From Eledone cirrhosa (Eukaryota): 64,000 nucleotides of DNA. Where the stretch lies: positions 53,134,001 through 53,198,000 of the forward strand of contig OZ024743.1 in the NCBI GenBank assembly GCA_964016885.1. The letters run 5' to 3'. Below are positions 2,111-63,665 of the stretch, one piece after another. A model generated the notes under the pieces. It was not told where the DNA came from. It saw only the letters and a list, made by a program, of their open reading frames with translations, and made no database searches. Position numbers and translations under genes: made by a program. Numbering within the stretch: the stretch's first letter is position 1; the number at the start of each line of letters is the position of its first letter.

Positions 2111-2373
2111 TTGGTGTATAAAAATCTGTTAGAAAACTTTAAACTTCCCTTAAAACTGTCAGTTGAAGAAGGAATGAAGCAATGGAATGTCTTATCAGCT
2201 CCCTTCATCTCTGCTACAATCTCTACATATGTTAAATGTCCAAAATCTTCCTTTTTGCTGAATCTAATTTTTGAATATGCCAAACTTTACAACTTTAACT
2301 CCCCACCCACCAAAAAAAGCTGAACGTCCTGTACTACACGAAAACACATTTGCAAGACTTCCTTAACCCTTTA

Positions 2374-4099
2374 ACATTTACATTACTCTATATATACTAT
2401 TGTATTTTCACAGTAAAGGCTTTATCTCACATAATATCTCACATAACATTTACATTACTCTATATATACTATTGTATTTTCACAGTAAAGGCTTTATCTC
2501 ACATAATATCTCACATAACATCTACATTACTCTATATATACTATTGTATTTTCACAGTAAAGGCTTTATCTCACATAATATCTCACATAACATTTACATT
2601 ACTCTATATATACTATTGTATTTTCACAGTAAAGGCTTTACCTCGCATAATATCTCACATAACATTTACATTACTCTATATATACTATTGTATTTTCACA
2701 GTAAAGGCTTTACCTCGCATAATATCTCACATAACATTTACATTACTCTATATATACTATTGTATTTTCACAGTAAAGGCTTTACCTCGCATAATATCTC
2801 ACATAACATTTACATTACTCTATATATACTATTGTATTTTCACAGTAAAGGCTTTATCTCACATAATATCTCACATAACATTTACATTACTCTATATATA
2901 CTATTGTATTTTCACAGTAAAGGCTTTAACTCACATAATATCTCACATAACATTTACATTACTCTATATATACATGGAGGCACATGGCTTAGTGGTTAGA
3001 GCATTGGCCTTGCAATCGAAAGGTTGTGAGTTCAATTTTCAGACCGAGTGATGTGTTGTTTCCTTGAGCAAGACACTTTATTTCACATTGCTCCAGTTTA
3101 CTCAGCTGTAGAAATGAGATGATAGGGACTGGAGTCCTTATCATTCCACTGCAAAGTGGTCGTGGAGGTGCCACGACAAAAAAAGCACCCAGCACTCACT
3201 GTAAATGAGGTTGGTGTTAGGAAGGGCATCCAGCTGTAGAAATCAAGCCAGAATCAGTTCCCGTCCCACCCTTGCAAGCAGGGAAAAGCGGACGTAAAAT
3301 GATGATGATGATGATGATGATGATACTATTGTATTTTCACAGTAAAAGCTTTATCTCACATAATATCTCACATAACATTTACATTACTCTATATATACTA
3401 TTGTATTTTCACAGTAAAGGCTTTACCTCACATAATATCTCACATAACATTTATATTACTCTATATATACTATTGTATTTTCACAGTAAAGGCTTTACCT
3501 CACATAATATCTCACATAACATTTACATTACTCTATATATACTATTGTATTTTCACAGTAAAGGCTTTATCTCACATAATATCTCACATAACATTTACAT
3601 TACTCTATATATACTATTGTATTTTCACAGGAAAGGCTTTACCTCACATAATATCTCACATAACATTTACATTACTCTATATATACTATTGTATTTTCAC
3701 AGGAAAGGCTTTATCTCACATAATATCTCACATAACATTTACATTACTCTATATATACTATTGTATTTTCACACTAAAGGCTTTATCTCACATAATATCT
3801 CACATAACATTTACATTACTCTATATATACTATTGTATTTTCACAGTAAAGGCTTTATCTCACATAATATCTCACATAACATTTACATTACTCTATATAT
3901 ACTATTGTATTTTCACAGTAAAGGCTTTATCTCACATAATATCTCACATAACATTTACATTACTCTATATATACTATTGTATTTTCACAGTAAAGGCTTT
4001 ACCTCACATAATATCTCACATAACATTTACATTACTCTATATATATACTATTGTATTTTCACAGTAAAGGCTTTACCTCACATAATATCTCACATAACA
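2374..4099 (+). repeat. 72-bp tandem array (~19 units, interrupted by a SINE at 2972-3323)
   Basis: Unit ACATTTACATTACTCTATATATACTATTGTATTTTCACAGTAAAGGCTTTA(T/C)CTCACATAATATCTCACATA; 24-aa periodicity in the ORF track. Confidence 0.95.
2972..3323 (+). mobile_element. tRNA-derived SINE family A (CORE-like centre, RTE-derived 3' tail)
   Basis: A box TGGCTTAGTGG, B box GAGTTCAAT, CCTTGAGCAAGACACTT core and (ATG)n tail. Confidence 0.85.
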
Positions 4100-4311
4100 T
4101 CTCGTATACGAGAGACGTGTGTTGACGTGTGTGAACAAGCTCGGCTACCGAGTCGGATTTACTTACTCAAAAAGTGAGTTTTGATTAATTTTTTTATACT
4201 GTAATATACGTTAACCCCTTGCCTTGGTCGTCAAACTTTGAGTTTATTTATTTTCGCCCCTTTTTGGGGCGAATTTTCCAGTTAAAAATTTATTACGGCA
4301 AACTAATAGAA

Positions 4312-6054
4312 ATGGACGGAATTTTCACATCTCATCCTAACGTGAAAGCCACGCCCCCTAAGAAAGGTGATACAGAGAAGCTAGAAGCACAAGGCTCTAA
4401 GTCTTCCCTCCTGACTTCTGCAAAAGAAACATGGAACACGGAATTAAAAGAAAAATTTGAAAAAATGGGTGAAAACCCAGAAAGTCACATAAACGCAGAC
4501 AAAAACAACAACGACAATAACAGCAATAGTCACAACACCAACCAAGGAAAAAATAACGATAACACCAAACAAAGCGAACCCACTACTGGTACCTCCTTTG
4601 CACAGGCGGTCCGGAAAACACAAACCTGCAAGCAACTGGACATTACAACTCTGAGAGAAAAGATGAAGGAAGCGAAACAGTATGTAACTTTCAAAGAAGG
4701 AGGAGACTTCACAATCACCTCCCCACAAGAAATCAAAAGAGACACGACGCTAAGAACGATATCTTTCAGAACAATTTCCAACATAACAAGGAAACCAACT
4801 CAATTATCCCAAAAAGAGATTGAGCTGGTCCTAAAAAATGTGTGGAGTGATATATCGTTCATACAAAAAGGGCCACTCTATGGGAATATAACGGTCCTAA
4901 TGAAGGATCAATTGACGGCCAGGAAATACTCTGTGGCACCAATTGTTTCCAAGCTACATACATTTTTCCCCACATATTTAGGGAAAAGAACGCAGAAGAT
5001 AAGGGTCTCCGGAATCCGGCCAAATGCATGCATTTCCTGGGTACTAACAGGGTTTTTAGAAGACGAGGACGGAATCCTCTCAGTAGGAGAAGTCACCACA
5101 GACGTTTTCGGCGGTTTGAGCGTGGAGGTTCTGGTCCAAATGAGACCAGAACGAATCGCTAGAATACCACAGAGGGTGTCCCTCGATGGAGAAACATTTA
5201 TATATATTTCAGCCGAGGGTAGGAGGCCCATATGTTACTACTGTTCAAGCAGGGGTCATCTAAGGGCTGCTTGTCCTCAATTGACAAAAAAAAAGGCTCT
5301 TTTGCCTACACCCCACACACCACCACCGCCACCACCACCACCACCACCACCTCCACCACCACCACCACAACAACAACAAAAACAACAGGGAAAAATAACA
5401 CAAGACACGGCCCCACCCAAAACAACTCCCAAAACACACACAAATACAACAAAACCCCAAAATACACCACTACCCGACAGCACGGACGAGGACCCAGCGG
5501 AAACGGCACCTAGTGACGAAGAGGGGGAACCCTTCCAACCTGTAAAAAGGAAAAAAAGAAAGCACCACTCGAACATAAACGAAACAAACACACAACCACC
5601 AACAAAAACAAAACAAACAGAACAAACAAAATCCGCCCCACCCCAAAACATAACACATACAACAAAACGTAAGCACACACAAGAACAACAAACAAACACA
5701 ACACAAATAAAACAGTATACATACATTAACACAAATAACAAAGAACTAGTAAAAACAATACACAAAGACCCTTTGGTGGAAACTGAAGGGCAATTCTTTG
5801 CAAGCGCGGCCAACAAACCGCATTTAAAAATGATAAGACTCCCAATGGACACCTATGCAAAACTAAGAGAGAACTTTCCTGAGGACGTGGGGAAAACATG
5901 TACTCGACCCTATAACCGCGTCCTCTTGAAACGTTTCCCCACCCACACCTCACCAAACACCCCCACTCCACCACAGAACAACACCCCACCAAACAACCCC
6001 TCCAATACGCCCATGGATATTGTGCAACCTGCTCCTCAGGAGCCGAACAGGTAG
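4312..6054 (+). CDS. Tx1 ORF1p (gag-like, CCHC zinc knuckle)
   Basis: First ATG at 4312; CYYCSSRGHLRAAC (CX2CX4HX4C); Pro/Thr/Gln-rich C-terminal half with basic patch KRKKRK. Confidence 0.88.
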   Translation: MDGIFTSHPNVKATPPKKGDTEKLEAQGSKSSLLTSAKETWNTELKEKFEKMGENPESHINADKNNNDNNSNSHNTNQGKNNDNTKQSEPTTGTSFAQAVRKTQTCKQLDITTLREKMKEAKQYVTFKEGGDFTITSPQEIKRDTTLRTISFRTISNITRKPTQLSQKEIELVLKNVWSDISFIQKGPLYGNITVLMKDQLTARKYSVAPIVSKLHTFFPTYLGKRTQKIRVSGIRPNACISWVLTGFLEDEDGILSVGEVTTDVFGGLSVEVLVQMRPERIARIPQRVSLDGETFIYISAEGRRPICYYCSSRGHLRAACPQLTKKKALLPTPHTPPPPPPPPPPPPPPPPQQQQKQQGKITQDTAPPKTTPKTHTNTTKPQNTPLPDSTDEDPAETAPSDEEGEPFQPVKRKKRKHHSNINETNTQPPTKTKQTEQTKSAPPQNITHTTKRKHTQEQQTNTTQIKQYTYINTNNKELVKTIHKDPLVETEGQFFASAANKPHLKMIRLPMDTYAKLRENFPEDVGKTCTRPYNRVLLKRFPTHTSPNTPTPPQNNTPPNNPSNTPMDIVQPAPQEPNR

Positions 6055-6075
6055 GTCCTTCCTCTTTTAACCAAC

Positions 6076-9000
6076 ATGGCTGATATAAGAGTTGGGTGTC
6101 TGAATGTACGTGGCCTGGGACTGTCTTGGAAACAAGGCAAACTTTTAAACGATCTCAGGTCGCATAGAATGGATGTAATGGCTATTTGCGAGTCCAGGAT
6201 CAGCAGCGAGCACCAACTGGCGCCCCTCTTCGACGACTTTGAGATCTTCGCATCTCTCTGTCAACCGGGGGGTGGGGGTGGAGTTGTCGTTCTGCTGCGA
6301 AAACACCTGGGCCTCGCCATACAGAAGGTGCACCTGGACCCGGAGGGTCGACTGGTGGTTTTAGACGTCGGCAGTAGTGAAAGTGGAGCCCTTAGACTAA
6401 TAGCTGTGTATGCCCCTTTTTGGGCAGCGCGGCCGGAATACTTCCAACGTCTGGAAACTTTTCTGGGAACGTCCCGCTCCTTGCTTTTAGTGGGGGACTG
6501 GAATGGTATCCTGGATGCACGTTGGGACTATGTAGGGGCATGTGCCAATAGAGGGGGGTGTAAAAGCCTCAAAAGGTTAATCGGCCGATTTGACCTGGCC
6601 GATAGATATCGACTAGATTTTCCGACTGTACCACTATGGACGTGGACCAATCGCAGTGGAACATCTAGGTCGTACCTAGATAGGGTCCTAGTTAGAGAGA
6701 ACGATAGGGACACATTTAGCTGTCCAAAAATGTTCATGGTTGACTATTCGGATCACAAGTTAGTGACCTGCATAGCCAACCTTGATAGAACCCATAGACA
6801 GGGACCCGGTTACTGGAAGCTGAACTTGTCCTTACCGAGAAGCAAAGCTTACAGTAAACGGATTAGCACGTTAGTTAAGCAGAGTTTGACAGGGGCAATT
6901 GTCAACAACAGGTGGTGGAGCTCTCTTAAGAGAGCAATTAGAATAGAATCGATAGGTTTTAGTCAGGAATTAGCAAGGGATAGGAACAAGACGGAAAGGG
7001 AATTAGTAGATAGAATAGAAGAGGCGATTAGGAGTGGCAATGTAGCCGGCGTGCTGGCATCAAGAATGGCCTTAGACCAGTTCTTTGAGGTGAAGCATGA
7101 AGGCTGCGTTGTCAGGAGTAAAATACGTGCTCTGGGTAATGAGGGAGCCAAAGCTGTGAGCTGGGCCCGAGTGACAGAGGCAAAAAGTGGGAACAAGTCC
7201 ACGATTCGGTCTTTGAAGGACCAGGATGGGCGTGTGATCCTTGAACCTGGGCAGATGTGTGCGGCCTTTCAGCGGCACTTTGCACGACTGTTCGAGAGGG
7301 GCGGCGCGCCGGGTGAGACTATGGATTTCAATCCATACCTCGACGGTCTGCCGCGCCTCTCGGACGCGGAGGCGAAGTCCTGCGAAAGGACGATTTCAGC
7401 TGCTGAGATAGGGGCGGCGCTGAGCCAATGCGGCAAACGCAAATCCCCGGGTCTCGATGGTCTACCATACGAGATATATGTAGCGATGCCGGACTTGTTC
7501 TCCGATATCCTCGAAGCGGTCTACTGCAACTGGCAGCAGAACGGGAGAATTCCCAGTTCTGTGACCAAGGGCGTAGTTACGCTGGTGAGGAAGGATGAGA
7601 ACAAGGGGGATGACATAAGTAACTTCAGGCCCATAACTCTGCTAAATACAGAGTTAAAGATTTTGGCCAAGGTGTTAGCGAAGAGGTTGGCGCTTGTCGT
7701 TGGAAACCTGGTGGGAGAAGCGCAGACATGCGCAATCCCGTCCAGGTCCATTCACGACAATCTCCACCTTATGCGATACATCATAGAGAGGGTAGGGAAT
7801 GAACCCGGCTTTGGTGGGGCCCTGATCAACTTGGATCAATCTAAAGCTTTCGATAGGGTTGACCATCGTTACCTGGATGCGGTGCTCGCGGCGGCAGGCT
7901 TCGGACCCGTTTTCAGGGGTTGGATTGCTGCGATGCACAGCAGCAACGTCTGCTCAAGGGTCAAGGTGAACGGCCACCTCTCGGAGCCGTTCCAAATCAT
8001 GCGATCCATCCGACAGGGATGCCCTCTCTCCTCCCTACTGTATGTGCTGGCTCTTGAGCCACTACTGCGGAAGTTGGAGCGGTTGCAGGGCATCCCTTTG
8101 GAACCGGGATTGCAGAAAGCGGCGTCGGCCTACGCCGATGACGTGACAGTAATGGTGTCGAAAACCTCGCAAATCGGTGAGATCGGCACCTTACTGGAGG
8201 AATATGAAAGGTTTACAGGAGCCAAGCTGAACCGGGACAAGTCCGTCGGTTTGCAACTCGGAACATGGAGAGGCAAACCGATGCCCTCCAACGACGTCGT
8301 CGGACGCTGGACGGAGGGCCCGGTGAAGCTGCTTGGGGTCTGGTTCGGACCAGACCTCCAGGTGGAGAAAAACTGGAACGAGGTAACGGCCAGGGTGTTT
8401 GCACTCACCCAGAAGTGGGCCCAGTGCAAACTATCCCTGAAAGGTCGAGCGGAGGTGGCGAATACTTATATAGCATCCGTCATCTACTACCGCTTGACCG
8501 TCGTGCCTTGCCCAGTGAAAAGACTCGCCAAAATGGAGTGCGCGCTGTTCCAATTTCTTTGGAACAAGCGGACCCCTTTGGTGAGGAGATCCATCTGCTG
8601 TCAACACCCTTCGAAAGGAGGGCTGGGGATGCCGTGGCTACAGATGCGTAAACACGCATTAAGGCTACGGCACCTCCAGGTATTCCTCACCGGTCGACCG
8701 GTGTGGGCCCCGTTTGTGAGGCGAGCCTTTCCCAGACTCGTCTCGCTCACCGAGCTGCAATCCTGGGTCAAGCAAAGACCGAGAAAAGTGGGCGACTGGC
8801 ACATTGAATGTGCCCAGGCGCTCACGGCCCTCTGGAAAGCGGACCCGGCAATCAGTGGAGACTCCACCTCGACATTCTATAGAGGGTTGGTACGCAGCAG
8901 GTGCGACGATGCTCTCGGAGAAGCTCTAGGCATGGAGGAAGATGAACTGGCCAGTCTGTTCGGTAGGACGTTTGGCCCTGGACCGATGGACAACTTCCAA

Positions 9001-9513
9001 AAGTCCCTGGCTTGGCAGTGCTACCGAGGGGCTCTACCCGTTCGAGACAAGCTCCACAGGCATGGGAGCCTGGGTAGAGATCCTTTGAATAAGATCTGTC
9101 CGAGATGCGTGCATGATGACGAAACCGTTGCGCACGCATTCGTACACTGCCCAGGCATTGCTGACCTGTGGGGCTATGTGGAACGACTACTGTCGAGGGT
9201 GGGACCAATCCGGTTGACCACCGAGTCCATTGTCACGATCAAACCGCCTCCCCCTTTCAAAAACGAAGGAGAGGCGGTTTTTCTCTGTGTGGTAGCCATG
9301 GCTAAAGAAGTTGTATGGTGGACGAGGCTGAAAGGGCTGAGGTCAGACACCTTTCTCTCCGGCCAACAACTGGTCCCTTTTTTCAAATACCATTTTAAAA
9401 GAAGGATCAGAATGGAGAGAGAGGTGCTCTACCCCAGCAAGTTTTATGAAAGGTGGGTGAAAGTAGGGAGAATGGCCAGAGTGAATGGGTCTTCTCTCTA
9501 TATCAGCCTGTAG
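6076..9513 (+). CDS. Tx1 ORF2p: APE endonuclease + reverse transcriptase + C-terminal Cys/His zinc-binding motif
   Basis: LNVRGL, GDWN, SYLDRV and SDH (APE); KSPGLDG, FRPITLLN, LDQSKAFDRV, IRQGCPLS and YADD (RT); CPRC...HAFVHC. 1145 aa, uninterrupted. Confidence 0.95.
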   Translation: MADIRVGCLNVRGLGLSWKQGKLLNDLRSHRMDVMAICESRISSEHQLAPLFDDFEIFASLCQPGGGGGVVVLLRKHLGLAIQKVHLDPEGRLVVLDVGSSESGALRLIAVYAPFWAARPEYFQRLETFLGTSRSLLLVGDWNGILDARWDYVGACANRGGCKSLKRLIGRFDLADRYRLDFPTVPLWTWTNRSGTSRSYLDRVLVRENDRDTFSCPKMFMVDYSDHKLVTCIANLDRTHRQGPGYWKLNLSLPRSKAYSKRISTLVKQSLTGAIVNNRWWSSLKRAIRIESIGFSQELARDRNKTERELVDRIEEAIRSGNVAGVLASRMALDQFFEVKHEGCVVRSKIRALGNEGAKAVSWARVTEAKSGNKSTIRSLKDQDGRVILEPGQMCAAFQRHFARLFERGGAPGETMDFNPYLDGLPRLSDAEAKSCERTISAAEIGAALSQCGKRKSPGLDGLPYEIYVAMPDLFSDILEAVYCNWQQNGRIPSSVTKGVVTLVRKDENKGDDISNFRPITLLNTELKILAKVLAKRLALVVGNLVGEAQTCAIPSRSIHDNLHLMRYIIERVGNEPGFGGALINLDQSKAFDRVDHRYLDAVLAAAGFGPVFRGWIAAMHSSNVCSRVKVNGHLSEPFQIMRSIRQGCPLSSLLYVLALEPLLRKLERLQGIPLEPGLQKAASAYADDVTVMVSKTSQIGEIGTLLEEYERFTGAKLNRDKSVGLQLGTWRGKPMPSNDVVGRWTEGPVKLLGVWFGPDLQVEKNWNEVTARVFALTQKWAQCKLSLKGRAEVANTYIASVIYYRLTVVPCPVKRLAKMECALFQFLWNKRTPLVRRSICCQHPSKGGLGMPWLQMRKHALRLRHLQVFLTGRPVWAPFVRRAFPRLVSLTELQSWVKQRPRKVGDWHIECAQALTALWKADPAISGDSTSTFYRGLVRSRCDDALGEALGMEEDELASLFGRTFGPGPMDNFQKSLAWQCYRGALPVRDKLHRHGSLGRDPLNKICPRCVHDDETVAHAFVHCPGIADLWGYVERLLSRVGPIRLTTESIVTIKPPPPFKNEGEAVFLCVVAMAKEVVWWTRLKGLRSDTFLSGQQLVPFFKYHFKRRIRMEREVLYPSKFYERWVKVGRMARVNGSSLYISL

Positions 9514-9750
9514 GTGAAAGAAGAGGAAAAAGCGGAGACGAGGGAAGCACCTACTCTTTGTGCTCCTGAGGAGAAGGGTTACACATTTTTTCCGGGGTGT
9601 GTGCGACCCATGTTAATGCCCCCTCCCTATTGAGGACTTCGTTTGTTGTTGTTATTTCATTGTTATATTTTTGTACTCGTTAATTATATGTAAACTTCCC
9701 CCCTTGTATCTGTCCCTACCTTTTGTGCCCTAGTGGCAAATAAAGAAACC

Positions 9751-10100
9751 ACTCTATATATACTATTGTATTTTCACAGTAAAGGCTTTATCTCACATAA
9801 TATCTCACATAACATTTACATTACTCTATATATACTATTGTATTTTCACAGTAAAGGCTTTACCTCACATAATATCTCACATAACATTTACATTACTCTA
9901 TATATACTATTGTATTTTCACAGTAAAGGCTTTATCTCACATAATATCTTACATAACATTTACATTACTCTATATATACTATTGTATTTTCACAGTAAAG
10001 GCTTTATCTCACATAATATCTCACATAACATTTACATTACTCTATATATACTATTGTATTTTCACAGTAAAGGCTTTATCTTACATAATTATCTCACATA
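9751..10100 (+). repeat. 72-bp tandem array, ~5 units, 3' of the Tx1 element
   Basis: Same unit; the last unit reverts to the monomer form CATAATTATCTCACATAATATCGAATC. Confidence 0.95.
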
Positions 10101-11843
10101 ATATCGAATCTATAAGATTTTCATATTAGTTATTTTGAGAACAATACCTTACCATCAGTATGAGCAGCCAGTTACAGCTGGTTTGAAAAGAAAGAGGTGA
10201 GAGAATTCTGGCCGCATATGGCCGGTTTAAATGCTAAAGGGTTAAAAAGAACAAAATAACATTAATTATTACTTCACATAAAAAAGTATAGTCCTTACTA
10301 TAGTACTACAAACTTTCACATTTATCAATCTACTAATTAATACAGTGTGTCCACCAAAAATATACACACTTTTTAAATGACAATAAATGCATTGTTTATT
10401 GAAACAAAACTAATGGTTAAATATGAGTACATCTTTTTGGGACACCCTGTTTACATTTGAATCAAGAAACCACAGCTTAAAACAGCACAATGATCAAATC
10501 CCATTATATATAGTTTTTACTATAATATATAATGGTCGGTGGGTTGGCAATACTGGTAGAGGGTCAGACGCCATACTTTGCAGCAAAGAGTTACGGCCCT
10601 TTATAGTCTGAGTTCAAATCCTGCTGAGGTTAACTTTGCCTTTCATCCTTACAGGTCGATAAAATAAAGTACCAGTAATGCACTGGGATAATTGCTGGCC
10701 TTGTGCTAAAAGTAGAAACAATTATATATTATAGTCTTTACTCTAATACAGCAAATTTTCACAACAATCTCTCCACTAGTACAAATACTAAAAACATTTG
10801 AATTAACAAACTATTTTCTTCTAAATCTTTCTAGGATGTTAACTAAATGATACAACTAGAGTCTAGTCTAGCAGGTTGCTGAAAATACTTGTGCTCTACC
10901 ATAATTATGCCTGATTAATAAAGGTGCTGAACAATCAATGTTATAGCAGTGCCAGTCATATACTGGGGTCTGTTTAATTGACTACATACCCCCTTCCTCA
11001 AATTTATGATTTCATCTAGATGTTATGTTGAATAACGAAACATTTATGGAACCATTCTCATTTCTTCCCAGCCTTCTCTGTTGCTCCACATTCTCCACCC
11101 ATGTCTTGCTCCCATAAATAATGGCACTTCTCACATATTTAGCTTCTATCTTTCCCTTCCATTCTTTCCATCCTTCTCTGCTGCTCCATGTTCACCATAT
11201 ATTGCTCTCATAAATCATGGTACTTCATCATACACCTTTCCCTTCAGTTTCAGCAATACTCACCTCCTCATAAGCACTGGATCAGAGAAGAGAAACTGAG
11301 GGATGGAGTGGGTGGAGGTAACAGTTTTGAGGGGGTGGATATTAGGGTATTAGAAAAGAAGTATCTATCTGTTAAATCTATAGTTAAAACACTTTGTACA
11401 ATACTTAAGAGCTAAACAACCATTTATAATACTAATCAATAGCACCAGTCACAACAACAACAACAACAATAACATAACATTCCTCCTCACCAAAAAATTA
11501 GATAAAGAAAATCTGACAACTGTAAGAATACATTTTAAAATCAAAAAAAAAATCAAAGCTGTTTATACTAAACAACAACACCCCTGCCTCGACAAAAACA
11601 ACTATAACAGAACAAAACAAGTTTTAAAAATATTTTGAACAGAAAAGTAATTTGAATAAAGGCAGAAAATAGTAAAAATGTTATTTCCTGAACTAGTTTA
11701 GTGATATTATCTCGGTTAATGATTTCCCTGGGGGTATCAAGTGGAACATATTAATATTCTAAAAATGAAATGTAGCAGTCATCATCATCATTGTCTTCAT
11801 CACCATCATCATTATCATCATCATCATCATCATCAACATCATC

Positions 11844-29419: not shown

Positions 29420-31060
29420 TTTCCCATGATTCCTTTCTTTAAAAAAATGTAGAATAAAGAATATAATCTGTTGACCACCTGGTTATTGTTTATGATTTGT
29501 TATCTACACTTAGGTACTTTACATGAGTAAAAGTATGATAGGCGAATAGATAAGATGTTAAAGTTTATCCAAGCTAAGAATTAATTCTTTAGATATCTTT
29601 TGCAGTTATTCATGATCACCTTGTCAACAGCAAGATGGTCTTTGGTTTCATGAGAATTTTTCCTACACCCCTTCTGATTGACAGGTAGCATCTCATTCTA
29701 AATCAAGTGATCATACACTTTTGTAACAAAGATGCCAGTCAACAGCTTCCAAAGCAAATTCCAGCAAGCCAACAGCCTGTAATTTCCAACTAATCAACGT
29801 TTTCTTTTATCCATCATTATCAAAGTTGTCTTTCCTTCAACCATCCAACTTGGAACTTCTTCTACTACTTTATTATTAAGGTGCTTCCCTAGCTTTGAAT
29901 GAATACTTCAATTTCTTTCAACCAGAATCAATCCCATTTGGTCCAGGAGATTTCCAGTATGGCATTTTTCCTAACTTGCTCTTGAATATTTTCATTTGAA
30001 ATTCTTTTCCAGCTCTGTTTTGGTTTATCAGACTAACTTATGTTCAACTTCATTTATCCATCTCACATCTTTGTTGTGAAATAATGTTATGAAATTCCTC
30101 ACAGATTTGACCAAAATTGTGCAGATTCTTCTGCAACTTTTGTCCCATTTTTCTCTAACAGTGATCTAAAGAATATTTTCTGATTTTCAGAGAACAATCT
30201 GTTCTGTTTGTATTGTTTTTGTTTATTTGTATAGCACCTAACTGTTTAGATGTTGCCTTAATTCATTGCTTCATTTTTTTCATCACTACATTCAAAGCTT
30301 TCAACTTTAAGTTAAGGTCATGCATTGTTTCTCTCCTACTTTGGCCCTTTTACAGTTTCCTCTATGCCATTCATCCATTTTACCTAGATCTTTTCTGGGC
30401 TGAGTTATATCACCCTCCAATCCACCAGGGTTCCTTACATTACTTCCTTTCAGTTTCCTTAAATGCTAATTGCTCACCCAACAGAAACCCTACAGTATTA
30501 ATTAACTTACTCTGGTGATAGCATTAGTTTCTATATACATCATTGCATCGTTTACTTTGGCTGTTTCAGTTGCTAAATGACTTTTCTCCATATTCCAAAG
30601 ATTCAGCAACATCTTATTGAATCCAGGGTCATTAACCCTTTAGCTTTTAAACTGGCCATATCCGGCCAGAATTTTCTCATCTATTTCTGTTTAAACTGGC
30701 CATAACCAGCCACTCATACCAATGTTATGGTATTATTCTCAAAATAAATAACATCAAAATCTCATAGATTTGATATTATGTGAGGTAAAGTGTTTACAGT
30801 GAAAATATAATAGTAAATATAGAGTAATGTATATGCTAAAGGGTTAAATAGATCTCTCAATCTTTTGATAATAAATTTTCTTTCTTTCTCTTCTATATTT
30901 TCATTCACATTTTCAATGTTCACAATATCAGACACTTGATTTTCACTCTCTCCACATTTAGTAGTTCATCATTTTTTCCCCCTTCTTAGTATTTTGGTAG
31001 GCTAATTCGTCCTTAGTTGATTCATTTTTATTGTTGTTGTTGTTGTGTGACAGTCTTTAT
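29420..31060 (-). pseudogene. Highly decayed R4/Dong-like non-LTR retrotransposon RT region
   Basis: Reverse-strand remnants LGKMPYWKSPGP (~29940-29975) and YKQNRLFSENQK (~30178-30212); many stops. Confidence 0.5.
30632..30847 (-). mobile_element. Monomeric TTAA MITE (LINE-free)
   Basis: TTAA-CCCTTTAGC...GCTAAAGGG-TTAA; reverse complement of the 34006 copy; inserted in the R4-like remnant. Confidence 0.85.
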
Positions 31061-34005: not shown

Positions 34006-34241
34006 TTAACCCTTTAGCATTTACATTACTCTATATTTGCTATAAAGAAATTATATTTTCTCGGTAAACACTTTACCTCACATAATTATCTCGCATATTA
34101 TTGAATCTATGAGATTTTGATATTATTTATTTTGAGAACAATACCTTAATATCAGTATGAGTGGTCAGTTACGACCAGTTTGACAGAAAGAGGTGAGAGA
34201 ATTCTGGCTGGATATGGCCAGTTTAAATGCTAAAGGGTTAA
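34006..34241 (+). mobile_element. Monomeric TTAA MITE (LINE-free)
   Basis: 14-bp TIR CCCTTTAGCATTTA / TAAATGCTAAAGGG with TTAA on both sides. Confidence 0.9.
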
Positions 34242-34448: not shown

Positions 34449-34842
34449 TTAACCCTTTATCATTTACATTACTCTATATATACTATTATATTTTCTTGGT
34501 AAAGGTTTTACCTCACATAATTATCTCACATAATATCGAATCTATGAGATTTTCATATCATTTATTTTGAGAACAATACCTTAACATAAGTATGAGTGAC
34601 CAGTTACAGCAGGTTTGAACAGAAAGAGGTGAGAGAATTCTGGCCAGATATGGCCGGTTTAAATGCTAAATCTCTCACCTCTTTCTGTTCAAATTGGCCA
34701 TAACTGGCTACTCATACTTATGTTAAGGTATTTTTCTCAAAATAAATATCAAAATCTCGTAGATTTGATATTATTTGAAATAAAGTGTTTACTATGAAAA
34801 TACAATAGTAAATATAGAGTAATATCAATGGTAAAGGGTTAA
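34449..34842. mobile_element. Tail-to-tail fused MITE dimer
   Basis: + copy 34449-34670 joined directly to a - copy 34671-34842; both outer ends are left-type TIRs with TTAA. Confidence 0.8.
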
Positions 34843-50782: not shown

Positions 50783-53700
50783 TTAACTCTTTAGCATTCA
50801 CATTACTCTATATTTACTATTGAATTTTTATAGTAAAGGCTTTACCTCACATAATATCTCACATAACATTTACATTACTCTATATATACTATTGTATTTT
50901 CACAGTAAAGGCTTTACCTCACATAATATCTCACATAACATTTACATTACTCTATATATACTTTTGTATTTTCATGGTAAAGTCTTTACCTCACATAATA
51001 TCTCACATAACATCTCATATACGAGAGACTGTGTTGACGTGTGTGAACAAGCTCGGCTACCGAGTTGGATTTACTTACTCAAAAGTGAGTTTTGATTAAT
51101 TTTTTTATACTGTAATATACGTTAACCCCTTGCCTGGGTCGTCAAACTTTGAGTTTATTTATTTTCGCCCCTTTTTGGGGCGAATTTTCCTTTTAAAAAT
51201 TTATTATGGCAAACTGATAGAAATGGACGGAATTTTCACATCTCATCCTAACGAGAAAGTCACGCCCCCTAAGAAAGGTGATACAGAGAAGCTAGAGGTA
51301 CAAGGCTCTAAGTCTTCCCTCCTCACTTCTGCAAAAGAAACATGGAACACGGAATTAAAAGAAAAATTTGTAAAAATGGGTGAAGACCCAGAAAGTCACA
51401 TAAACGCAAACAAAAACAACAATGACAATAACAGCATGATCAACAACAGCAATAGTCACAACACCAACCAAGGAAAAAATAACGATAACACCAAACAAAG
51501 CGAACCCACTACTGGTGCCTCCTTTGCATAGGCGGTCCGGAAAACACAGACCTGCAAGCAACTGGACATTACAACTCTGAGAGAAAAGATGAAGGAAGCA
51601 AAACAGTATGTAACTTTCAAAGAAGGAGGAGACTTCACAATCACCTCCCCACAAGAAATCAAAAGAGACACGACACTAAGAACGATATCTTTCAGAACAA
51701 TTTCCAACATAACAAGGAAACCAGCTCAATTATCCCAAAAAGAAATTGAGCTGGTCCTAAAAAATGTGTGGAGTGATATATCGTTCATACAAAAAGGGCC
51801 ACTCTATGGGAATATAACGGTGCTAATGAAGGATCAATTGACGGCCAGCAAATACTCAGTGGCGGCAATTGTTTCCAAGCTACACACATTTTTCTAAACA
51901 TATTTGGGGAAAAGAACACAGAAAATAAGAGTCTCCGGAATCCGGCCAAATGCATGCATTTCCTGGGTACTAACAGGATTTTTAGAAGACGAGGACGGAA
52001 TCCTTTCAGTAGGAGAAGTCACCACAGACGTTTTCGGCGGTTTGAGCATGGAGGTTCTGGTCCAAATGAGACCAGAACGAATAGCTAGAATACCACAGAG
52101 GGTGTCCCTCGATGGAGAAACATTTATATACATTTCAGCTGAGGGTAGGAGGCCCATATGTTACTACTGTTCAAGCAGGGGTCATCTAAGGGCTGCCTGT
52201 CCTCAATTGACAAAAAAAAGGCTCTTTTGCCTACACCCCACACACCACCACCGCCACCACCACCACCACCAACACCACTACCACCACCACCAACACCACT
52301 ACCACCACCACCACTACCACCACCACAACAACAACAAAAACAACAACAAAAACAACAAAAACAACACGGAAAAATAACACAAGACAAGGTCCCACCCAAA
52401 ACAACTCCAAAAACACATATAAACACAACAAAACCCCAAAATACACCACTACCCGACAGCACGGACGAGGACCCAGCTGAAACGGCACCTAGTGACGAAG
52501 AGGGGGAACCCTTCCAACCTGTAAAAAGAAAAAAAAGAAAACACCACACGAACATAAACGAAACAAACACACAACCACCAACAAAAACAAAACAAGTAGA
52601 ACAAACAAAATCCACCCCCACCCCAAAACATAACACATACAACAAAACGCAAGCACACACAAGAACAACAAACAAACACAACACAAATAAAACAGTATAC
52701 ATACATTAACACAAATAACAAAGAACTAGTAAAAACAATACACAAAGACCCTTCGGTGGAAACTGAAGGGCAATTCTTTGCAAGCTGCTGAGATAGGGGC
52801 GGCGCTGAGCCAATGCGGCAAACGCAAATCCGGACTTGTTCTCCGATATCCTCGAAGCGGTCTACTGCAACTGGCAGAAGAACGGGAGAATTCCCAGTTC
52901 TGTGACCAAGGGCGTAGTTATGCTGGTGAGGAAGGATGAGAACAAGGGGGATGACATAAGTAACTTCAGGCCCATAACTCTGCTAAATACAGAGTTAAAG
53001 ATTTTGGCCAAGGTGTTAGCGAAGAGGTTGGCGCTTGTTGTCGGAAACCTGGTGGGAGAAGCGCAGACATGCGCAATCCCGTCCAGGTCCATTCACGACA
53101 ATCTCCACCTTATGCAATACATCATAGAGAGGGTAGGGAATGAACCCGGCTTTGGTGGGGCCCTGATCAACTTGGATTAATCTAAAGCTTTCGATAGGGT
53201 TGACCATCGTTACCTGGATGCGGTGCTCGCGGCGGCAGGCTTCGGACCCGTTTTCAGGGGTTGGATTGCTGCGATGCACAGCAGCAACGTCTGCTCAAGG
53301 GTCAAGGTGAACGGCCACCTCTCGGAGCCATTCCAAATCATGCGATCCATCCGACAGGGATGCCCTCTCTCCTCCCTTCTGTATGTGCTGGCTCTTGAGC
53401 CACTACTGCGGAAGTTGGAGCGGTTGCAGGGCATCCCTTCGGAACCGGGATTGCAGAAAGCGGCGTCGGCCTACGCCGATGACGTGACAGTAATGGTGTC
53501 GAAAACCTCGCAAATCAGTGAGATCGGCACCTTACTGGAGGAATATGAAAGGTTTACAGGAGCCAAGCTGAACCGGGACAAGTCCGTCGGTTTGCAACTC
53601 GGAACATGGAGAGGCAAACCGATGCCCTCCAACGACGTGGTCGGACGCTGGACAGAGGGCCCAGTGAAGCTGCTTGGGGTCTGGTTCGGACCAGACCTCC

Positions 53701-55191
53701 AGGTGGAGAAAAACTGGAACGAGGTAATGGCCAGGGTGTTTGCACTCACCCAGAAGTGGGCCCAGTGCAAACTATCCCTGAAAGGTCAAGAGGAGGTGGC
53801 GAACACTTATATAGCATCCGTCATCTACTACCGCTTGACCGTCGTGCCTTGCCCAGTGAAAAGACTCACCAAAATGGAGTGCGCGCTGTTCCAATTTCTT
53901 TGGAACAAGCGGACCCCGTTGGTGAGGAGATCCATCTGCTGTCAACACCCTTCGAAAGGAGGGCTGGGGATGCCGTGGCTACAGATGCGTAAACACGCAT
54001 TAAGGCTACGGCACCTCCAGGTATTCCTCACCGGTCAACCGGTGTGGGCCCCGTTTGTGAGGCAAGCCTTTCCCAGACTCGTCTCGCTCACCAAGTTGCA
54101 ATCCTGGGTCAAGCAAAGACTGAGAAAAGTGGGCGACTGGCACATTGAATGTGCCCAGGCGCTCACGGCCCTCGACATTCTATAGAGGGTTGGTACGCAG
54201 CAGGTGCGACGATGCTCTCGGAGAAACTCTAGGCATGGAGGAAGGTGAACTGGCCAGTCTGTTCGGTAGGACGTTTGGCCCTGGACCGATGGACAACTTC
54301 CAAAAGTCCCTGGCTTGGCAGTGCTACCGAGGGGCTCTACCTGTTCGAGACAAGCTCCACAGGCATGGGAGCCTGGGTAGGGATCCTTTGAATAAGATCT
54401 GTCCGAGATGCGTGCATGACGACGAAACCGTTGCGCACGCATTCGTACACTGCCCAGGCATTGCCATTGTCACGATCAAACCGCCTCCCCTTTTCAAAAA
54501 CGAAGGAGAGGCGGTTTTTCTCTGTGTGATAGCCATGGCTAAAGAAGTTGTATGGTGGACGAGGCTGAAAGGGCTGAGGTCAGACACCTTTCTCTCCGGC
54601 CAACAACTGGTCCCCTTTTTCAAATATCATTTTAAAAGAAGGATCAGAATGGAGAGAGAGGTGCTCTACCCCAGCAAGTTTTATGAAAGGTGGGTGAAAG
54701 TAGGGAGAATGGCCAGAGTGAATGGGTCTTCTCTCTATATCAGCCTGTAGGTGAAAGAAGAGGAAAAAGAGGAGACGAGGGAAGCACCTACTCTTTGTGC
54801 TCCTGAGGAGAAGGGTTGCACATTTTTTCCGGGGTGTGTGCGACCCATGTTAATGCCCCCTCCCTATTGAGGACTTCGTTTGTTGTTATTTCCTTGTTAT
54901 ATTTTTGTACTCATTAATTATATGTAAACTTCCCCCCTTGTATCTGTCCCTACCTTTTGTGCCCTGGTGGCAAATAAAGAAATTACTCTATATATACTAT
55001 TGTATTTTCACGGTGAAGGCTTTACCTTACATAATTATTCACATCGAATCTATGAGATTTTGATGATATTATTATTTACTTTGAAAACAAGACCTTAACA
55101 TCAGTATGAGTGGCTAGTTACGGCCAGTTTGAACAGTGAGAGGTGAGAGAATTCTGGCTGGATATGGCCGGTTTAAATGCTAAAGGGTTAA
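50783..55191 (+). mobile_element. Second composite MITE containing three 72-bp units and Tx1 copy 2
   Basis: TTAA-CTCTTTAGCATTCA at 50783 and TAAATGCTAAAGGG-TTAA ending at 55191. Confidence 0.85.
51013..54981 (+). pseudogene. Tx1 copy 2, 5'-complete but inactivated (stops, frameshifts, APE domain deleted)
   Basis: Highly similar to 4100-9750. TAG at 51529, TAA at 53178; lacks copy-1 5806-7400, 7447-7490, 8833-8870 and 9162-9227. Confidence 0.92.
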
Positions 55192-56336: not shown

Positions 56337-56564
56337 TTAACTCTTTAGCATTTACATTATTTTATATTTACTATTATGTTTTCATAATAAACATTTTATT
56401 TCACATAATTATCTCACATATATCGAATCTATGAGATTTTGATATTATTTATTTTGAGAACAATACCTTAACATCAGTATGAGCGGCCAGTTTCAGCCAG
56501 TTTGAACAGAAAGAGGTGAGAGAATTCTGGCCGGATATGGCCGGTTTAAATGCTAAAGGGTTAA
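56337..56564 (+). mobile_element. Monomeric TTAA MITE (LINE-free)
   Basis: TTAA-CTCTTTAGCATTTA ... TAAATGCTAAAGGG-TTAA. Confidence 0.88.
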
Positions 56565-56683: not shown

Positions 56684-56902
56684 TAGTATTTAAACAGGCC
56701 ATATCCGGCCAGAATTCTATCACCCCTTTCTCTTCAAACCGGTCGTAACTTGCTACTCATACATATATTGAGGTATTGTTCTCAAAATAAATAACATCAG
56801 AATCTCATAGATTCGATATTATGTGAGATATTATGTGGAATAAAGCCTTTATCATAAAAATACAACAGTATTTATAGAGTAATTTGAATGCTAAAAGGTT
56901 AA
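56684..56902 (-). mobile_element. Monomeric TTAA MITE (LINE-free, one end eroded)
   Basis: Reverse-complement match to the family; ends TGCTAAAAGG-TTAA. Confidence 0.8.
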
Positions 56903-57989: not shown

Positions 57990-60900
57990 TGACATGGCAA
58001 AAAGTGCCCTGTCCACACTGTAAAGTGGTTGTGTAGGTGTCACGACAAAAAGCACCCAGTCCACATTGTGAAGTGGTCATGTAGGTGTCACAACAAAAAG
58101 CACCCAGTCCACATTGTGAAGTGGTCATGTAGGTGTCACAACAAAAATCACCCAGTCCACATTGTAAAGTGGTCATGTAGGTGTCACAACAAAAAGCACC
58201 CAGTCCATATTGTAAAGTGGTCATGTAGGTGTCACGACAAAAAGCACCCAGTCCACACTGTAAAGTGGTTGTGTAGGTGTCACGACAAAAAGCACCCAGT
58301 CCACATTGTGAAGTGGTCATGTAGGTGTCACAACAAAAAGCACCCAGTCCCCATTGTGAAGTGGTCTTGTAGGTGTCACAACAAAAAGCACCCAGTCCAC
58401 ATTGTAAAGTGGTCATGTAGGTGTCACAACAAAAAGCACCCAGTCCATATTGTAAAGTGGTCATGTAGGTGTCACGACAAAAAGCACCCAGTCCACACTG
58501 TAAAGTGGTTGTGTAGGTGTCACGACAAAAAGCACCCAGTCCACACTGTAAAGTGGTCATGTAGGTGTCACGACAAAAAGCACCCAGTCCACACTGTAAA
58601 GTGGTTGTGTAGGTGTCACGACAAAAAGCACCCAGTCCACATTGTAAAGTGGTCATGTAGGTGTCACGATAAAAAGCACCCAGTCCACATTGTAAAGTGG
58701 TTGTGTATGTGTCATGACAAAAAACACCCAGTCCACACTGTAAAGTGGTCATGTAGGTGTCACGACAAAAAGCACCCAGTCCACATTGTAAACTGGTCGT
58801 GTAGGTGTCATGACAAAAAGCTCCGAGCCCACATTGTAAAGTGGTCATGTAGGTGTCACGACAAAAAGCACCCAGTCCACATTGTAAAGTGGTTGAGTAT
58901 GTGTCATGACAAAAAGCACACAGTCCACACTGTAAAGTGGTCATGTAGGTGTCACGACAAAAAGCACCCAGTCCACACTGCAAAGTGGTTGTGTAGGTGG
59001 TGTCACGACAAAAAGCACCCAGTCCACATTGTAAAGTGGTCATGTAGGTGTCACGACAAAAAGCACCCAGTCCACATTGTAAAGTGGTCATGTAGGTGTC
59101 ACGACAAAAAGCACCCAGTCCACATTGTAAAGTGGTCGTGTAGGTGTCATGACAAAAAGCACCCAGTCCACATTGTAAAGTGGTCATGTAAGTGTCACGA
59201 CAAAAAGCGCCCAGTCCACACTGTAAAGTGGTCATGTAGGTGTCACGACAAAAAGCACCCAGTCCACATTGTAAAGTGGTCATGTAGGTGTCACGACAAA
59301 AAGCACCCAGTCCACATTGTAAAGTGGTCGTGTAGGTGTCATGACAAAAAGCACCCAGTCCACACTGCAAAGTGGTTGTGTAGGTGTCACGACAAAAAGC
59401 ACCCAGTCCACATTGTAAAGTGGTCGTGTAGGTGTCATGACAAAAAGCACCCAGTCCACATTGTAAAATGGTCATGTAGGTGTCACGACAAAAAGCACCC
59501 AGTCCACATTGTAAAGTGGTTGTGTATGTGTCATGACAAAAAGCACCCAGTCCACACTGTAAAGTGGTCATGTAGGTGTCACGACAAAAAGCACCCAGTC
59601 CACACTGTAAAGTGGTTGTGTAGGTGTCACGACAAAAAGCACCCAGTCCACATTGTAAAGTGGTCATGTAGGTGTCACGACAAAAAGCACCCAGTCTACA
59701 TTGTAAAGTGGTCGTGTAGGTGTCATGACAAAAAGCACCCAGTCCACACTGCAAAGTGGTTGTGTAGGTGTCACGACAAAAAGCACCCAGCCCACACTGT
59801 AAAGTGGTAGTGTTGGTGTCACGACAAAAAGCACCCAGTCCACATTGTAAAGTGGTCGTGTAGGTGTCATGACAAAAAGCACCCAGTCCACATTGTAAAA
59901 TGGTCATGTAGGTGTCACGACAAAAAGCACCCAGTCCACATTGTAAAGTGGTCATGTAGGTGTCACGACAAAAAGCACCCAGTCCACATTGTAAAGTGGT
60001 TGTGTATGTGTCATGACAAAAAACACCCAGTCCACACTGTAAAGTGGTCATGTAGGTGTCACGACAAAAAGCACCCAGTCCACATTGTAAACTGGTCGTG
60101 TAGGTGTCATGACAAAAAGCTCCGAGCCCACATTGTAAAGTGGTCATGTAGGTGTCACGACAAAAAGCACCCAGTCCACATTGTAAAGTGGTTGAGTATG
60201 TGTCATGACAAAAAGCACACAGTCCACACTGTAAAGTGGTCATGTAGGTGTCACGACAAAAAGCACCCAGTCCACACTGCAAAGTGGTTGTGTAGGTGGT
60301 GTCACGACAAAAAGCACCCAGTCCACATTGTAAAGTGGTCATGTAGGTGTCACGACAAAAAGCACCCAGTCTACATTGTAAAGTGGTCGTGTAGGTGTCA
60401 TGACAAAAAGCACCCAGTCCACACTGCAAAGTGGTTGTGTAGCTGTCACGACAAAAAGCACCCAGCCCACACTGTAAAGTGGTAGTGTTGGTGTCACGAC
60501 AAAAAGCACCCAGTCCACACTGTAAAGTGGTCGTTTAGGTGTCACGACAAAAAGCACCCAGTCCACACTGTAAAGTGGTTGTGTACGTGTCACGACAAAA
60601 AGCACCCAGTCCACATTGTAAAGTGGTCATGTAGGTGTCACGACAAAAAGCACCCAGTCCACATTGTAAAGTGGTCATGTAGGTGTCATGACAAAAAGCA
60701 CCCAGTCCACACTGTAAAGTGGTCATGTAGGTGTCACGACAAAAAGCACCCAGTCCACATTGTAAAGTGGTCGTGTAGGTGTCACAACTAAAAGCACCCA
60801 GTCCACATTGTAAAGTGGTCATGTAGGTGTCACGACAAAAAGCACCCAGTCCACATTGTAAAGTGGTCATGTAGGTGTCACGAAAAAAAGCACCCAGTCC

Positions 60901-62030
60901 ACACTGTAAAGTGGTTGTGTAGGTGTCACGCAAAAAGAACCCAGTCCACACTGTAAAGTGGTCATGTAGGTGTCACGACAAAAAGCACCCAGTCCACATT
61001 GTAAAGTGGTCGTGTAGGTGTCATGACAAAAAGCACCCAGTCCACATTGTAAAATGGTCATGTAGGTGTCAGGACAAAAAGCACCCAGTACACATTGTAA
61101 AGTGGTCATGTAAGTGTCACGACAAAAAGCACCCAGTCCACACTGTAAAGTGGTTGTGTAGGTGTCACGACAAAAAGCACCCAGTCCACATTGTAAAGTG
61201 GTCATGTAGGTGTCATGACAAAAAGCACCCAGTCCACATTGTAAAGTGGTCGTGTAGGTGTCACGAAAAAAAGCACCCAGTCCACACTGTAAAGTGGTTG
61301 TGTAGGTGTCACGCAAAAAGCACCCAGTCCACACTGTAAAGTGGTCATGTAGGTGTCACGACAAAAAGCACCCAGTCCACATTGTAAAGTGGTCATGTAG
61401 GTGTCATGACAAAAAGCACCCAGTCCACATTGTAAAATGGTCATGTAGGTGTCACGACAAAAAGCACCCAGTCCACATTGTAAAGTAGTTGTGTAGGTGT
61501 CATGACAAAAAGCACCCAGTCCACACTGTAAAGTGGTTATGTAGGTGTCACGACAAAAAGCACCCAGTCCACACTGTAAAGTGGTCGTGTAGGTGTCATG
61601 ACAAAAAGCACCCAGTCCACACTGTAAAGTGGTCATGTAGGTGTCACGACAAAAAGCAGCCAGTCCACATTGTAAAGTGGTCGTGTAGGTGTCATGACAA
61701 AAAGCACCCAGTCCACATTGTAAAATGGTCATGTAGGTGTCACGACAAAAAGCACCCAGTCCACATCGTAAAGTGGCCATGTAGGTGTCACGACAAAAAG
61801 CACCCAGTCCACATTGTAAAGTGGTCGTGTAGGTGTCATGACAAAAAGCACCCAGTCCACATTGTAAAATGGTCATGTAGGTGTCACGACAAAAAGCACC
61901 CAGTCCACATTGTAAAGTGGTCATGAAGGTGTCACGACAAAAAGCACCCTGTCCACACTGTAATGTGGTCATGTAGGTGTCACAACAAAAAGCACCCAGT
62001 CCACATTGTAAAGTGGTTATGTATGTCGCA
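57990..62030 (+). repeat. 48-bp minisatellite (~84 units) derived from a SINE interior
   Basis: Unit CAAAAAGCACCCAGTCCACATTGTAAAGTGGTCATGTAGGTGTCACGA; runs into an ordinary SINE 3' half at 62030-62226. Confidence 0.95.
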
Positions 62031-63039: not shown

Positions 63040-63665
63040 GTGCACCCGAGTGTCTCAGTATTGCTGACCTGTTTATGTCAAGCTCTTTCTGTCCCGTGTA
63101 GAACAGATCTATCAACTGAGTCCATTGTGAAGATCACTCCGCCATCTTCCTTTAGAGGGGAACGACAGGCAGTCTTTATCTGCCTGGTGACCATGGCGAA
63201 AGAGGTCGTGTGTGGTCACATTTGAAAGAGTTGAAGACAAGCATTTTCCCCTTCAGTGAAGCCTTGATTAACTTTTTCAGGTTTCACTTGAAGAGGGAAA
63301 TCGGGGTGGAGAGGGAAGTGCAGCCTTCCAACCAGTTTGGTGAAAGTGGATGAGAGAGGCGAGCATGGTCCGTGTGAATGGGCCTGCCTTGAGCATACGT
63401 CTGTAGATTGGAGTGGAATAACTGGGAGAGGGCACTATGCCCTAGCAGACAGAGTGACCATGGCTTTTGTGGGATCTCTACATGAGTGACCCTTGGAGTC
63501 TCCACACCTTTGGGGAAGTTGTTATGTTTGTTTTAAATGTTTATTTTCTTAGTCACTTTTATAAATTATATTTTACACAAAGACAAACCGACACTGTATC
63601 ATCCTGTACCGTCTTTAATGTTTCCTTAATGTGAGCCCTGTGTGGCTAATAAAGACATCATCACC
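63040..63665 (+). mobile_element. 5'-truncated 3' end of a divergent sister Tx1 family
   Basis: STESIVKITPPSSFRGERQAVFICLVTMAKEVV aligns with ORF2 TTESIVTIKPPPPFKNEGEAVFLCVVAMAKEVV. Ends GCCCTGTGTGGCTAATAAAGA then a CAT/TAT tail. Confidence 0.8.

Follow-up and report, generated by a model that had tools for sequence, protein, structure and literature searches.

The window analysed here is a stretch of 64,000 nucleotides from the 3.0-Gb genome of Eledone cirrhosa (G000:C4:53134001–53198000; contigs and individual loci are cited by C and L numbers). It holds eight copies of a ~230-bp miniature inverted-repeat transposable element (MITE), which is bounded by TTAA on either side and has CCCTTTA[A/G]CATTTA inverted repeats, and two of these copies contain both a tandem array and a Tx1-like long interspersed nuclear element (LINE). 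The relation between this LINE and the 72-bp unit of the arrays is the subject of this report.

Locus 1 (2363..10245, + strand) is a non-autonomous piggyBac-type MITE with an internal 72-bp array, a short interspersed nuclear element (SINE) and the LINE. Its upstream array (2385..4100, +) comprises 19 unit heads, the units reading ACTCTATATA...ACATTTACATT, and one of them is split by the SINE (2974..3322, +), which has a weak tRNA-like head and an (ATG)n tail and lies inside the TATATA of that unit. The LINE body (4101..9750, +) is full-length and ends with ...GGCAAATAAAGAAA-CC, and the 29 nt directly ahead of it (4072..4100, +), homologous to the target at unit positions 37–65, are taken as the probable true 5′ end of the element. 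The downstream array (9751..10100, +) consists of four full units and a final unit running into the MITE body, five heads that bring the total to 24. Locus 2 (50783..55191, +) is a MITE with three units, an internally deleted LINE of the older TT subfamily (leader 50985–51013, body 51014–54984, +) and a final unit, giving three heads upstream of the LINE and one downstream. The other six copies have a single unit and contain no LINE: 30632..30846 (−), 34007..34241 (+), 56338..56564 (+), 56684..56901 (−) and two copies joined tail to tail at 34450..34841 (the second at 34668; no strand assigned to the pair). This pair forms an imperfect palindrome. The counts given in an earlier first-pass annotation of the window, 24 units at locus 1, 4 at locus 2 and one in each LINE-free copy, were confirmed. 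By itself the coincidence of two arrays and two LINEs among eight MITEs (P = 0.036) is weak evidence.

The array breakpoint falls between CACATAA and CATTTACATT and precedes the apparent 5′ junction of the LINE by 3 nt and its 3′ junction by 10 nt; the first-pass annotation was nearly right to equate unit boundary and insertion point, but the two are not identical. It had also described the first unit of locus 2 as diverged and monomer-like and the later ones as matching the locus 1 consensus. Only the middle unit is identical to the common unit; the unit adjoining the LINE differs at four head positions, and the T10 type of the first unit also occurs in the LINE-free arrays L097 and L098.

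The ends of the MITE match transposase-coding piggyBac elements. At 10 of 12 fetched loci with PF13843 (L232–L240 and L242), 20 of 22 nt of the left end agree, and the other end of 8 of these 10 is 66–67% identical over ~145 nt of the right part of the MITE. Since the transposase loci share its left end, the MITE is a non-autonomous piggyBac derivative. The ten loci belong to a near-identical family, several members of which have a 561-aa open transposase frame, and this family is a candidate mobiliser of the MITE.

The LINE has two open reading frames. ORF1 (4312..6054, +) encodes 580 aa without a Pfam match, and its translation contains a CX2CX4HX4C knuckle; a separate ORF1 with a CCHC knuckle is typical of the Tx1/L1 group. 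ORF2 (6076..9513, +; 1145 aa) comprises an endonuclease of the apurinic/apyrimidinic (APE) type, a reverse transcriptase (RT) and zf-RVT (PF03372, PF00078 and PF13966), and its best PDB match is human L1 ORF2p (E 3.5e-53, residues 4–857). With APE, RT and a C-terminal zinc motif in ORF2 and a knuckle in a separate ORF1, the element has the features of the Tx1/L1 group of retrotransposons lacking long terminal repeats (non-LTR). All 78 homologs returned by a protein search came without family names, and the label Tx1 is a provisional one that rests on architecture, L1 similarity and target behaviour rather than on an RT tree with named Tx1 elements.

The genome contains ~336 LINE 3′ ends and 322 LINE 5′ ends. 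For either end, the best 40 matches show 100% identity across 300 bases, which indicates a young family. The 5′ end is retained in 55 of 59 copies chosen by their 3′ end, many of them internally deleted, a pattern that would follow if insertion were completed only by cDNAs that terminate in the leader. On C1–C3 the copies cluster in the terminal ~30 Mb, and the interiors are nearly empty. A 66%-identical fragment of a related ORF2 3′ region lies at 63115–63385 of the window.

Target position and probable 5′ leader of the LINE

Insertion occurs at one position of the unit. The LINE 3′ end is followed by AAAG-N3-7-ACTCTAT in 327 of 336 cases and the 5′ end is preceded by CTCACATAACAT in 309 of 322, and at both ends the element thus behaves as a sequence-specific non-LTR retrotransposon with a single target position; both LINEs of the window are preceded by ...CTCACATAACAT and end directly before ACTCTAT. 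The two bases following AAAGAAA vary with subfamily (CCCTG: 12 TT, 7 TC, 1 CC; CCCTA: 70 CC, 12 TC, 1 CT), and because the bases before ACTCT shift from TT through TC to CC with the LINE subfamily, they are LINE-borne. Among 21 MITEs sampled by their left end, from 9,300 exact left ends in the genome, 18 have a single unit. Only two of 60 loci chosen by the LINE 3′ end lie in such single-unit MITEs, L154 and the 45-base stub L163. It is the LINE that depends on the array, and not the array on the LINE. The scarcity in single-unit MITEs is partly a consequence of the larger number of target sites in arrays and may partly reflect chromosome location.

Sister families point to the history of this preference. 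The LINE 3′ 16-mer that they have in common has 4,683 matches in the genome. Twenty loci were fetched from matches outside the family list; one was an array-borne member of the family, and the others were for the most part sister elements with (TCTA)n or (TC)n-type tracts after their 3′ end. The family likely switched its target from microsatellites to the TCTAT motif of the unit head, and the target would then have existed before the LINE. The one sister 5′ end compared (L136) has no similarity to the first ~110 nt of the LINE.

Units were numbered outward from the LINE, −1 touching it upstream, −2 and −3 lying further out and +1 directly downstream. Positions 37–65 are exact in unit −1 at 82 of 96 loci compared with 39 of 85 for unit −2 (p 1.7e-8), and variants of unit −2 at positions 46–65 recur in unit −1 in 0 of 44 cases as against 16 of 44 in unit −3. 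A variant was called locally common when at least 60% of the other units of the locus had it; at position 37 or beyond (positions 39–62) none of 24 such variants is kept in unit −1, where 19.0 would be expected. Fully fixed local variants are kept in 13 of 13 cases at positions 17–36 and in 0 of 7 beyond 36. Since fixed head variants are kept and tail variants are lost, the boundary lies between position 36 and positions 39–41, at about 4072 in the window. In the 60-bp arrays L134 and L135 the unit preceding the LINE has the long-type tail. It is likely that the LINE carries unit positions 37–65 as a 29-nt 5′ leader, which would also be present in its RNA. The first-pass proposal that target copies travel on the LINE RNA accordingly gains support at the DNA level for 29 nt and not for whole units, with longer foreign pieces seen at L106/L107 and L153. 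Routine carriage of two or more units was rejected, unit −2 being an ordinary neighbour (16/50 vs 12/50 at positions 46–65). The variant C36T was likewise discarded as a marker of a unit −1 lineage; it is found on several LINE haplotypes and in other units as well (7/96 vs 0/85, 4/77, 5/93 and 3/81).

Structure prediction pairs the leader with two GTGTGT repeats close to the 5′ end of the LINE body (z −2.7, with 3 of 200 shuffles as good). Rfam returned no ribozyme family over 2300–4500 at E ≤ 1, and the predicted leader fold has no obvious hepatitis delta virus (HDV) topology by eye. The motif TATATATA sits 32–34 nt upstream of the leader start, at unit positions 5–12, and one may guess at a promoter role. 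When contigs from four sequencing runs were compared with 4036–5250, three runs, whose kind is not recorded, contained the LINE and its junction, and the run guessed to be RNA yielded only short pieces of 85–95% identity, a result with no bearing on expression.

Arrays with and without the LINE

The first-pass annotation had proposed that the satellite occurs only in LINE-occupied MITEs and that the LINE generates it. Genome-wide, 24,825 sites match the 30-base array junction exactly, set against ~336 LINE 3′ ends. Two samples of arrays were drawn. The first comprised all 15 arrays with the exact junction listed on C1:0–11.03 Mb, with 8–10 kb fetched for each, and 9 of the 15 had no LINE within the sequence fetched. 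The second comprised 31 arrays with a rare junction variant from C1 to C10:41.98 Mb, the range of the LINE end lists. The 17 arrays without an adjacent listed LINE end were fetched and none contained a LINE, while the other 14 were called LINE-adjacent from end-list coordinates and partly from annotation. In the combined samples, which have one array in common, 26 of 45 arrays are LINE-free (Wilson interval 43–71%). Three more arrays, hand-picked on C12 and C13 and kept outside this count, are also LINE-free. Up to C10:42 Mb there are 43 of 425 variant-junction matches compared with 100 of 336 LINE ends, indicating that arrays are richer on small contigs.

LINE-free arrays reach 36, 38, 49 and 61 units. 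Many have private variants in most or all of their units, including local types of 60, 70 and 82 bp, and across all loci local unit types of 43, 60, 70, 73 and 82 bp were recorded. No end remnant of this LINE family was found at 28 LINE-free array loci, and in four LINE-free arrays with fixed private tail variants the leader-type tail occurs in 0 of 65 units (a fifth array, L093, was left out because of a parsing error). The commonest junction of LINE-free arrays is ACATAACAT, present in 320 units compared with 37 for the next commonest, a dominance that would be explained by a single founding duplication.

In the sampled arrays we therefore found neither a dependence on the LINE nor scars of it, and the exclusive association seen in the window does not hold genome-wide. 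Arrays are common without LINE trace and their unit variants track each locus, which is largely the outcome that the first-pass annotation had named as refuting its reading in favour of plain slippage or unequal exchange. Its observation is partly confirmed and its interpretation partly supported, the proposal of a satellite generator being for the most part unsupported. The LINE is likely in the main a tenant of the repeats and not their maker. Arrays exist and grow without requiring it, and it may occasionally add units.

The motif TATATATAC in the unit head is a second insertion hotspot that has been hit repeatedly by SINEs and other elements (window 2974–3322; L038, L094/L111, L115, L138, L145 and L103). 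Elsewhere in the window, a 48-bp tandem array of ~84 copies (57998–62023) has a unit resembling positions ~170–240 inside the same SINE family, and by this similarity it is a SINE-derived minisatellite.

Integration and alternative readings

We consider it probable that a young, sequence-specific Tx1-like LINE targets one position of the 72-bp repeat of the MITE, likely with a 5′ RNA leader that would anneal to the neighbouring unit, and that the arrays likely arise and grow without it. The left-end segment of the MITE would first be duplicated, probably by slippage across TA[A/G][C/T]AT microhomology, and the array would then expand and homogenise locally, presumably through slippage or unequal exchange, giving the private variants observed. 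The endonuclease would nick at or within a few bases of ACATT^ACTCTAT, where the 3′ junction is found, and the cDNA end complementary to positions 37–65 would pair with the upstream unit. The tail of that unit is replaced by the LINE version and the spacer TTACATT is dropped, so that insertion would as a rule leave the number of units unchanged. In occasional cases, as a few loci suggest, units may be added through pairing of the cDNA end with a foreign or downstream unit. A need for an upstream homologous unit would, we propose, account both for the scarcity of the LINE in single-unit MITEs, abundant as these are, and for the 5′-completeness of nearly all copies.

Several observations weigh against this account. 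The leader is deduced from DNA, and the sharp 36/37 boundary could instead reflect a fixed second-strand cut on a longer read-through RNA. Head variants that are common but unfixed locally are kept in unit −1 in 19 of 36 cases, where 29.8 would be expected (7 of the 17 losses come from L106/L107), and positions 1–8 of unit −1 are exact at 95 of 96 loci compared with 75 of 85 for unit −2 (p 0.003); more of unit −1 could thus be new than the model allows. The array samples come mostly from C1–C10 and are tilted to long arrays. Recombination between the units on either side can remove a LINE without trace, and some LINE-free arrays may once have been occupied. The ACATAACAT junction is identical to the leader, yet most listed left ends read TAGCAT, and a duplication seeded by the leader would explain its dominance as well as a founding duplication does.

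This last point leads to the reading in which the LINE seeds or enlarges arrays, its cDNA leader pairing with the nicked unit, one downstream of it or one elsewhere to add one to several units, and later LINE loss by recombination leaving seemingly LINE-free arrays with the standard junction, which equals the leader end. We regard it as unlikely. Unit gain was assessed at 80 de-duplicated insertions with both flanks, obtained from 83 paired loci after removal of three with duplicate upstream flanks. At L128 a stretch of 324 bases that starts at the MITE left end and runs up to the leader is repeated as the first 324 bases behind the LINE, with private variants in the same order, and at L154 the single units on either side of the LINE have five private variants in common and are identical over 36 bp, which insertion into a fresh dimer explains equally well. 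Two 72-bp units stand ahead of the LINE within an array of 43-bp units at L106/L107 (taken as a single event), and unit −1 of L153 looks foreign, lacking three variants common to all three downstream units. R2 provides a precedent, with tandem target duplications of 13–28 nt in some copies (PMC3774820). Nevertheless, duplication-like patterns are found at 8 of 80 LINE junctions as against 204 of 1168 pseudo-junctions inside arrays, and multi-unit duplication was rejected as a general feature, being no commoner than the array background. Perfect duplications from the first unit occur at 2 of 80 LINE junctions compared with 1 of 447 (p 0.06). Insertion possibly adds units sometimes, at no more than the background rate; the absence of the leader-type tail from the 65 diagnostic units and the 36–61 units of LINE-free arrays also argue against seeding. 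The array that holds L106 and L107 lies at a contig end (G000:C20:1–20000) and contains two LINEs, its 43-bp units deriving from a different left-end duplication of the MITE.

A related and rather improbable possibility is that LINE and satellite feed each other. The upstream unit would provide a TATA box and a homology handle, leader mis-pairing would add 1–5 or foreign units (L128, L154, L106/L107 and L153), the leader would have fixed the junction, and recombination would multiply or erase LINEs. If true, the retrotransposon would itself build and keep renewing the satellite in which it lives.

Uniform junctions could also result from copying of one MITE and LINE composite, by the piggyBac transposase or by segmental duplication, and piggyBac elements with an open frame and matching ends do exist. 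Adjacent LINEs are identical over 1150 nt with identical flanks at L022/L023 and L109/L110, and arrays thus also multiply LINE copies. However, other LINE neighbours in the same array often differ at 20–48 of 1150 nt and are therefore independent insertions, LINEs occupy different unit positions in arrays with different private variants, and duplicate upstream flanks are present in only 3 of the 83 paired loci. Composite copying is largely refuted, accounting for a minority of tandem copies only, and we judge it very improbable as the source of the uniform junctions.

The notion of the first-pass annotation that each unit is the scar of abortive target-primed reverse transcription with a ~65-bp target-site duplication is scarcely credible. 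In its favour, a 65-bp duplication is a formally possible reading of the flanks, and head variants at L154 and L091 are common to both sides of the LINE. Against it, the heads (first 36 bases) of units −1 and +1 are identical at only 5 of 71 informative junctions, at or below ordinary neighbours (8/55, 5/50 and 8/60), and none of 17 variants of unit +1 at positions 37–45 occurs in unit −1. In the truncated copies L132 and L163 the junction with the host lies 9–10 and 2 nt inside the unit, and the spacer TTACA that lies between units is found on neither LINE end. A general duplication of 65 or 36 bp was rejected.

Runs of at least six head-to-tail LINEs, 1–13 units apart, are found in single arrays at C1:4.22–4.26 Mb and C10:40.72–40.75 Mb (G000), and such runs mix independent insertions with tandem duplications. 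Two loci 40 kb apart on C1 (10.98–11.03 Mb), L112:1061–2310 and L113:1461–2240, have in common a ~590-bp block resembling an LTR element followed by a unit and the LINE, at 97% identity. In L113 the block comes after a 150-bp LINE 5′ stub with a leader junction of its own. A local rearrangement may have produced the block, or else a 5′ transduction that a template switch completed.

Comparison with known systems

The nearest parallel in target choice is Tx1L of Xenopus laevis, a Tx1-type LINE with a sequence-specific endonuclease whose target is the non-autonomous piggyBac element Tx1D (PMC4494074, PMC1950540). The LINE described here likewise targets a non-autonomous piggyBac element. It differs in having no regular duplication, a fixed loss of the spacer, a 29-nt leader and a 72-bp unit, and in being young with nearly all copies 5′-complete. 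Tx1D reportedly has internal tandem repeats, and Tx1L is said to lie within one of them, with a 23-bp duplication.

Other Tx1 families with DNA transposon or microsatellite targets include the crocodilian Tx1-Mar and Tx1-9_AMi and the teleost Kibi and Koshi (PMC4494074). The sister families in (TCTA)n and (TC)n-type tracts resemble these. There, however, the targets are described as preferences, a family being called specific above 20% of flanks (PMC4494074), whereas targeting is nucleotide-exact in 97% of cases here.

Arrays inside MITEs are known from DTC84 of the mollusc Donax trunculus (PMC3879986) and Tetris of Drosophila virilis (PMC4079207). As here, arrays of variable length occupy a MITE cassette, and no retrotransposon is invoked for their origin in those accounts; in contrast to both, the repeat in Eledone cirrhosa comes from the left subterminal part of a TTAA piggyBac MITE and is now a LINE target. 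A 2026 study of repeats in O. vulgaris reports recent L1-Tx1 families, and the word "target" is absent from its main text (PMC13282606). Our literature search, which covered few subscription papers and did not extend to Repbase, returned no description of this LINE family or of a Tx1 element with a target-derived leader, and within that coverage the combination of Tx1-type piggyBac targeting with an R2-style leader was not found described.

The closest parallel for the 5′ junction is R2. R2 has a restriction-like endonuclease. R2 RNA carrying 9–36 nt of upstream 28S target gives uniform 5′ junctions, a fixed 7-bp deletion is reported in a springtail, and copies sometimes carry tandem target duplications (PMC3774820). 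The LINE shares with R2 a target-derived 5′ leader (here read from DNA), a uniform 5′ junction, an inherited small deletion and, as a few loci hint, an occasional tandem target duplication. It differs from R2, which targets ribosomal DNA and has an HDV-like ribozyme, in its APE endonuclease, its transposon-derived minisatellite target and the lack of an Rfam ribozyme match. With more than 300 young copies of an APE-type LINE, nucleotide-exact targeting and what appears to be R2-style homology-guided 5′ joining, nature offers here an exceptionally clear case. The private variants of each array mark in the genome the border between host and element DNA, at unit position 36/37, and this has a bearing on the second-strand step of LINE integration, which is poorly understood. 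The sister families in microsatellites make the switch of target traceable.

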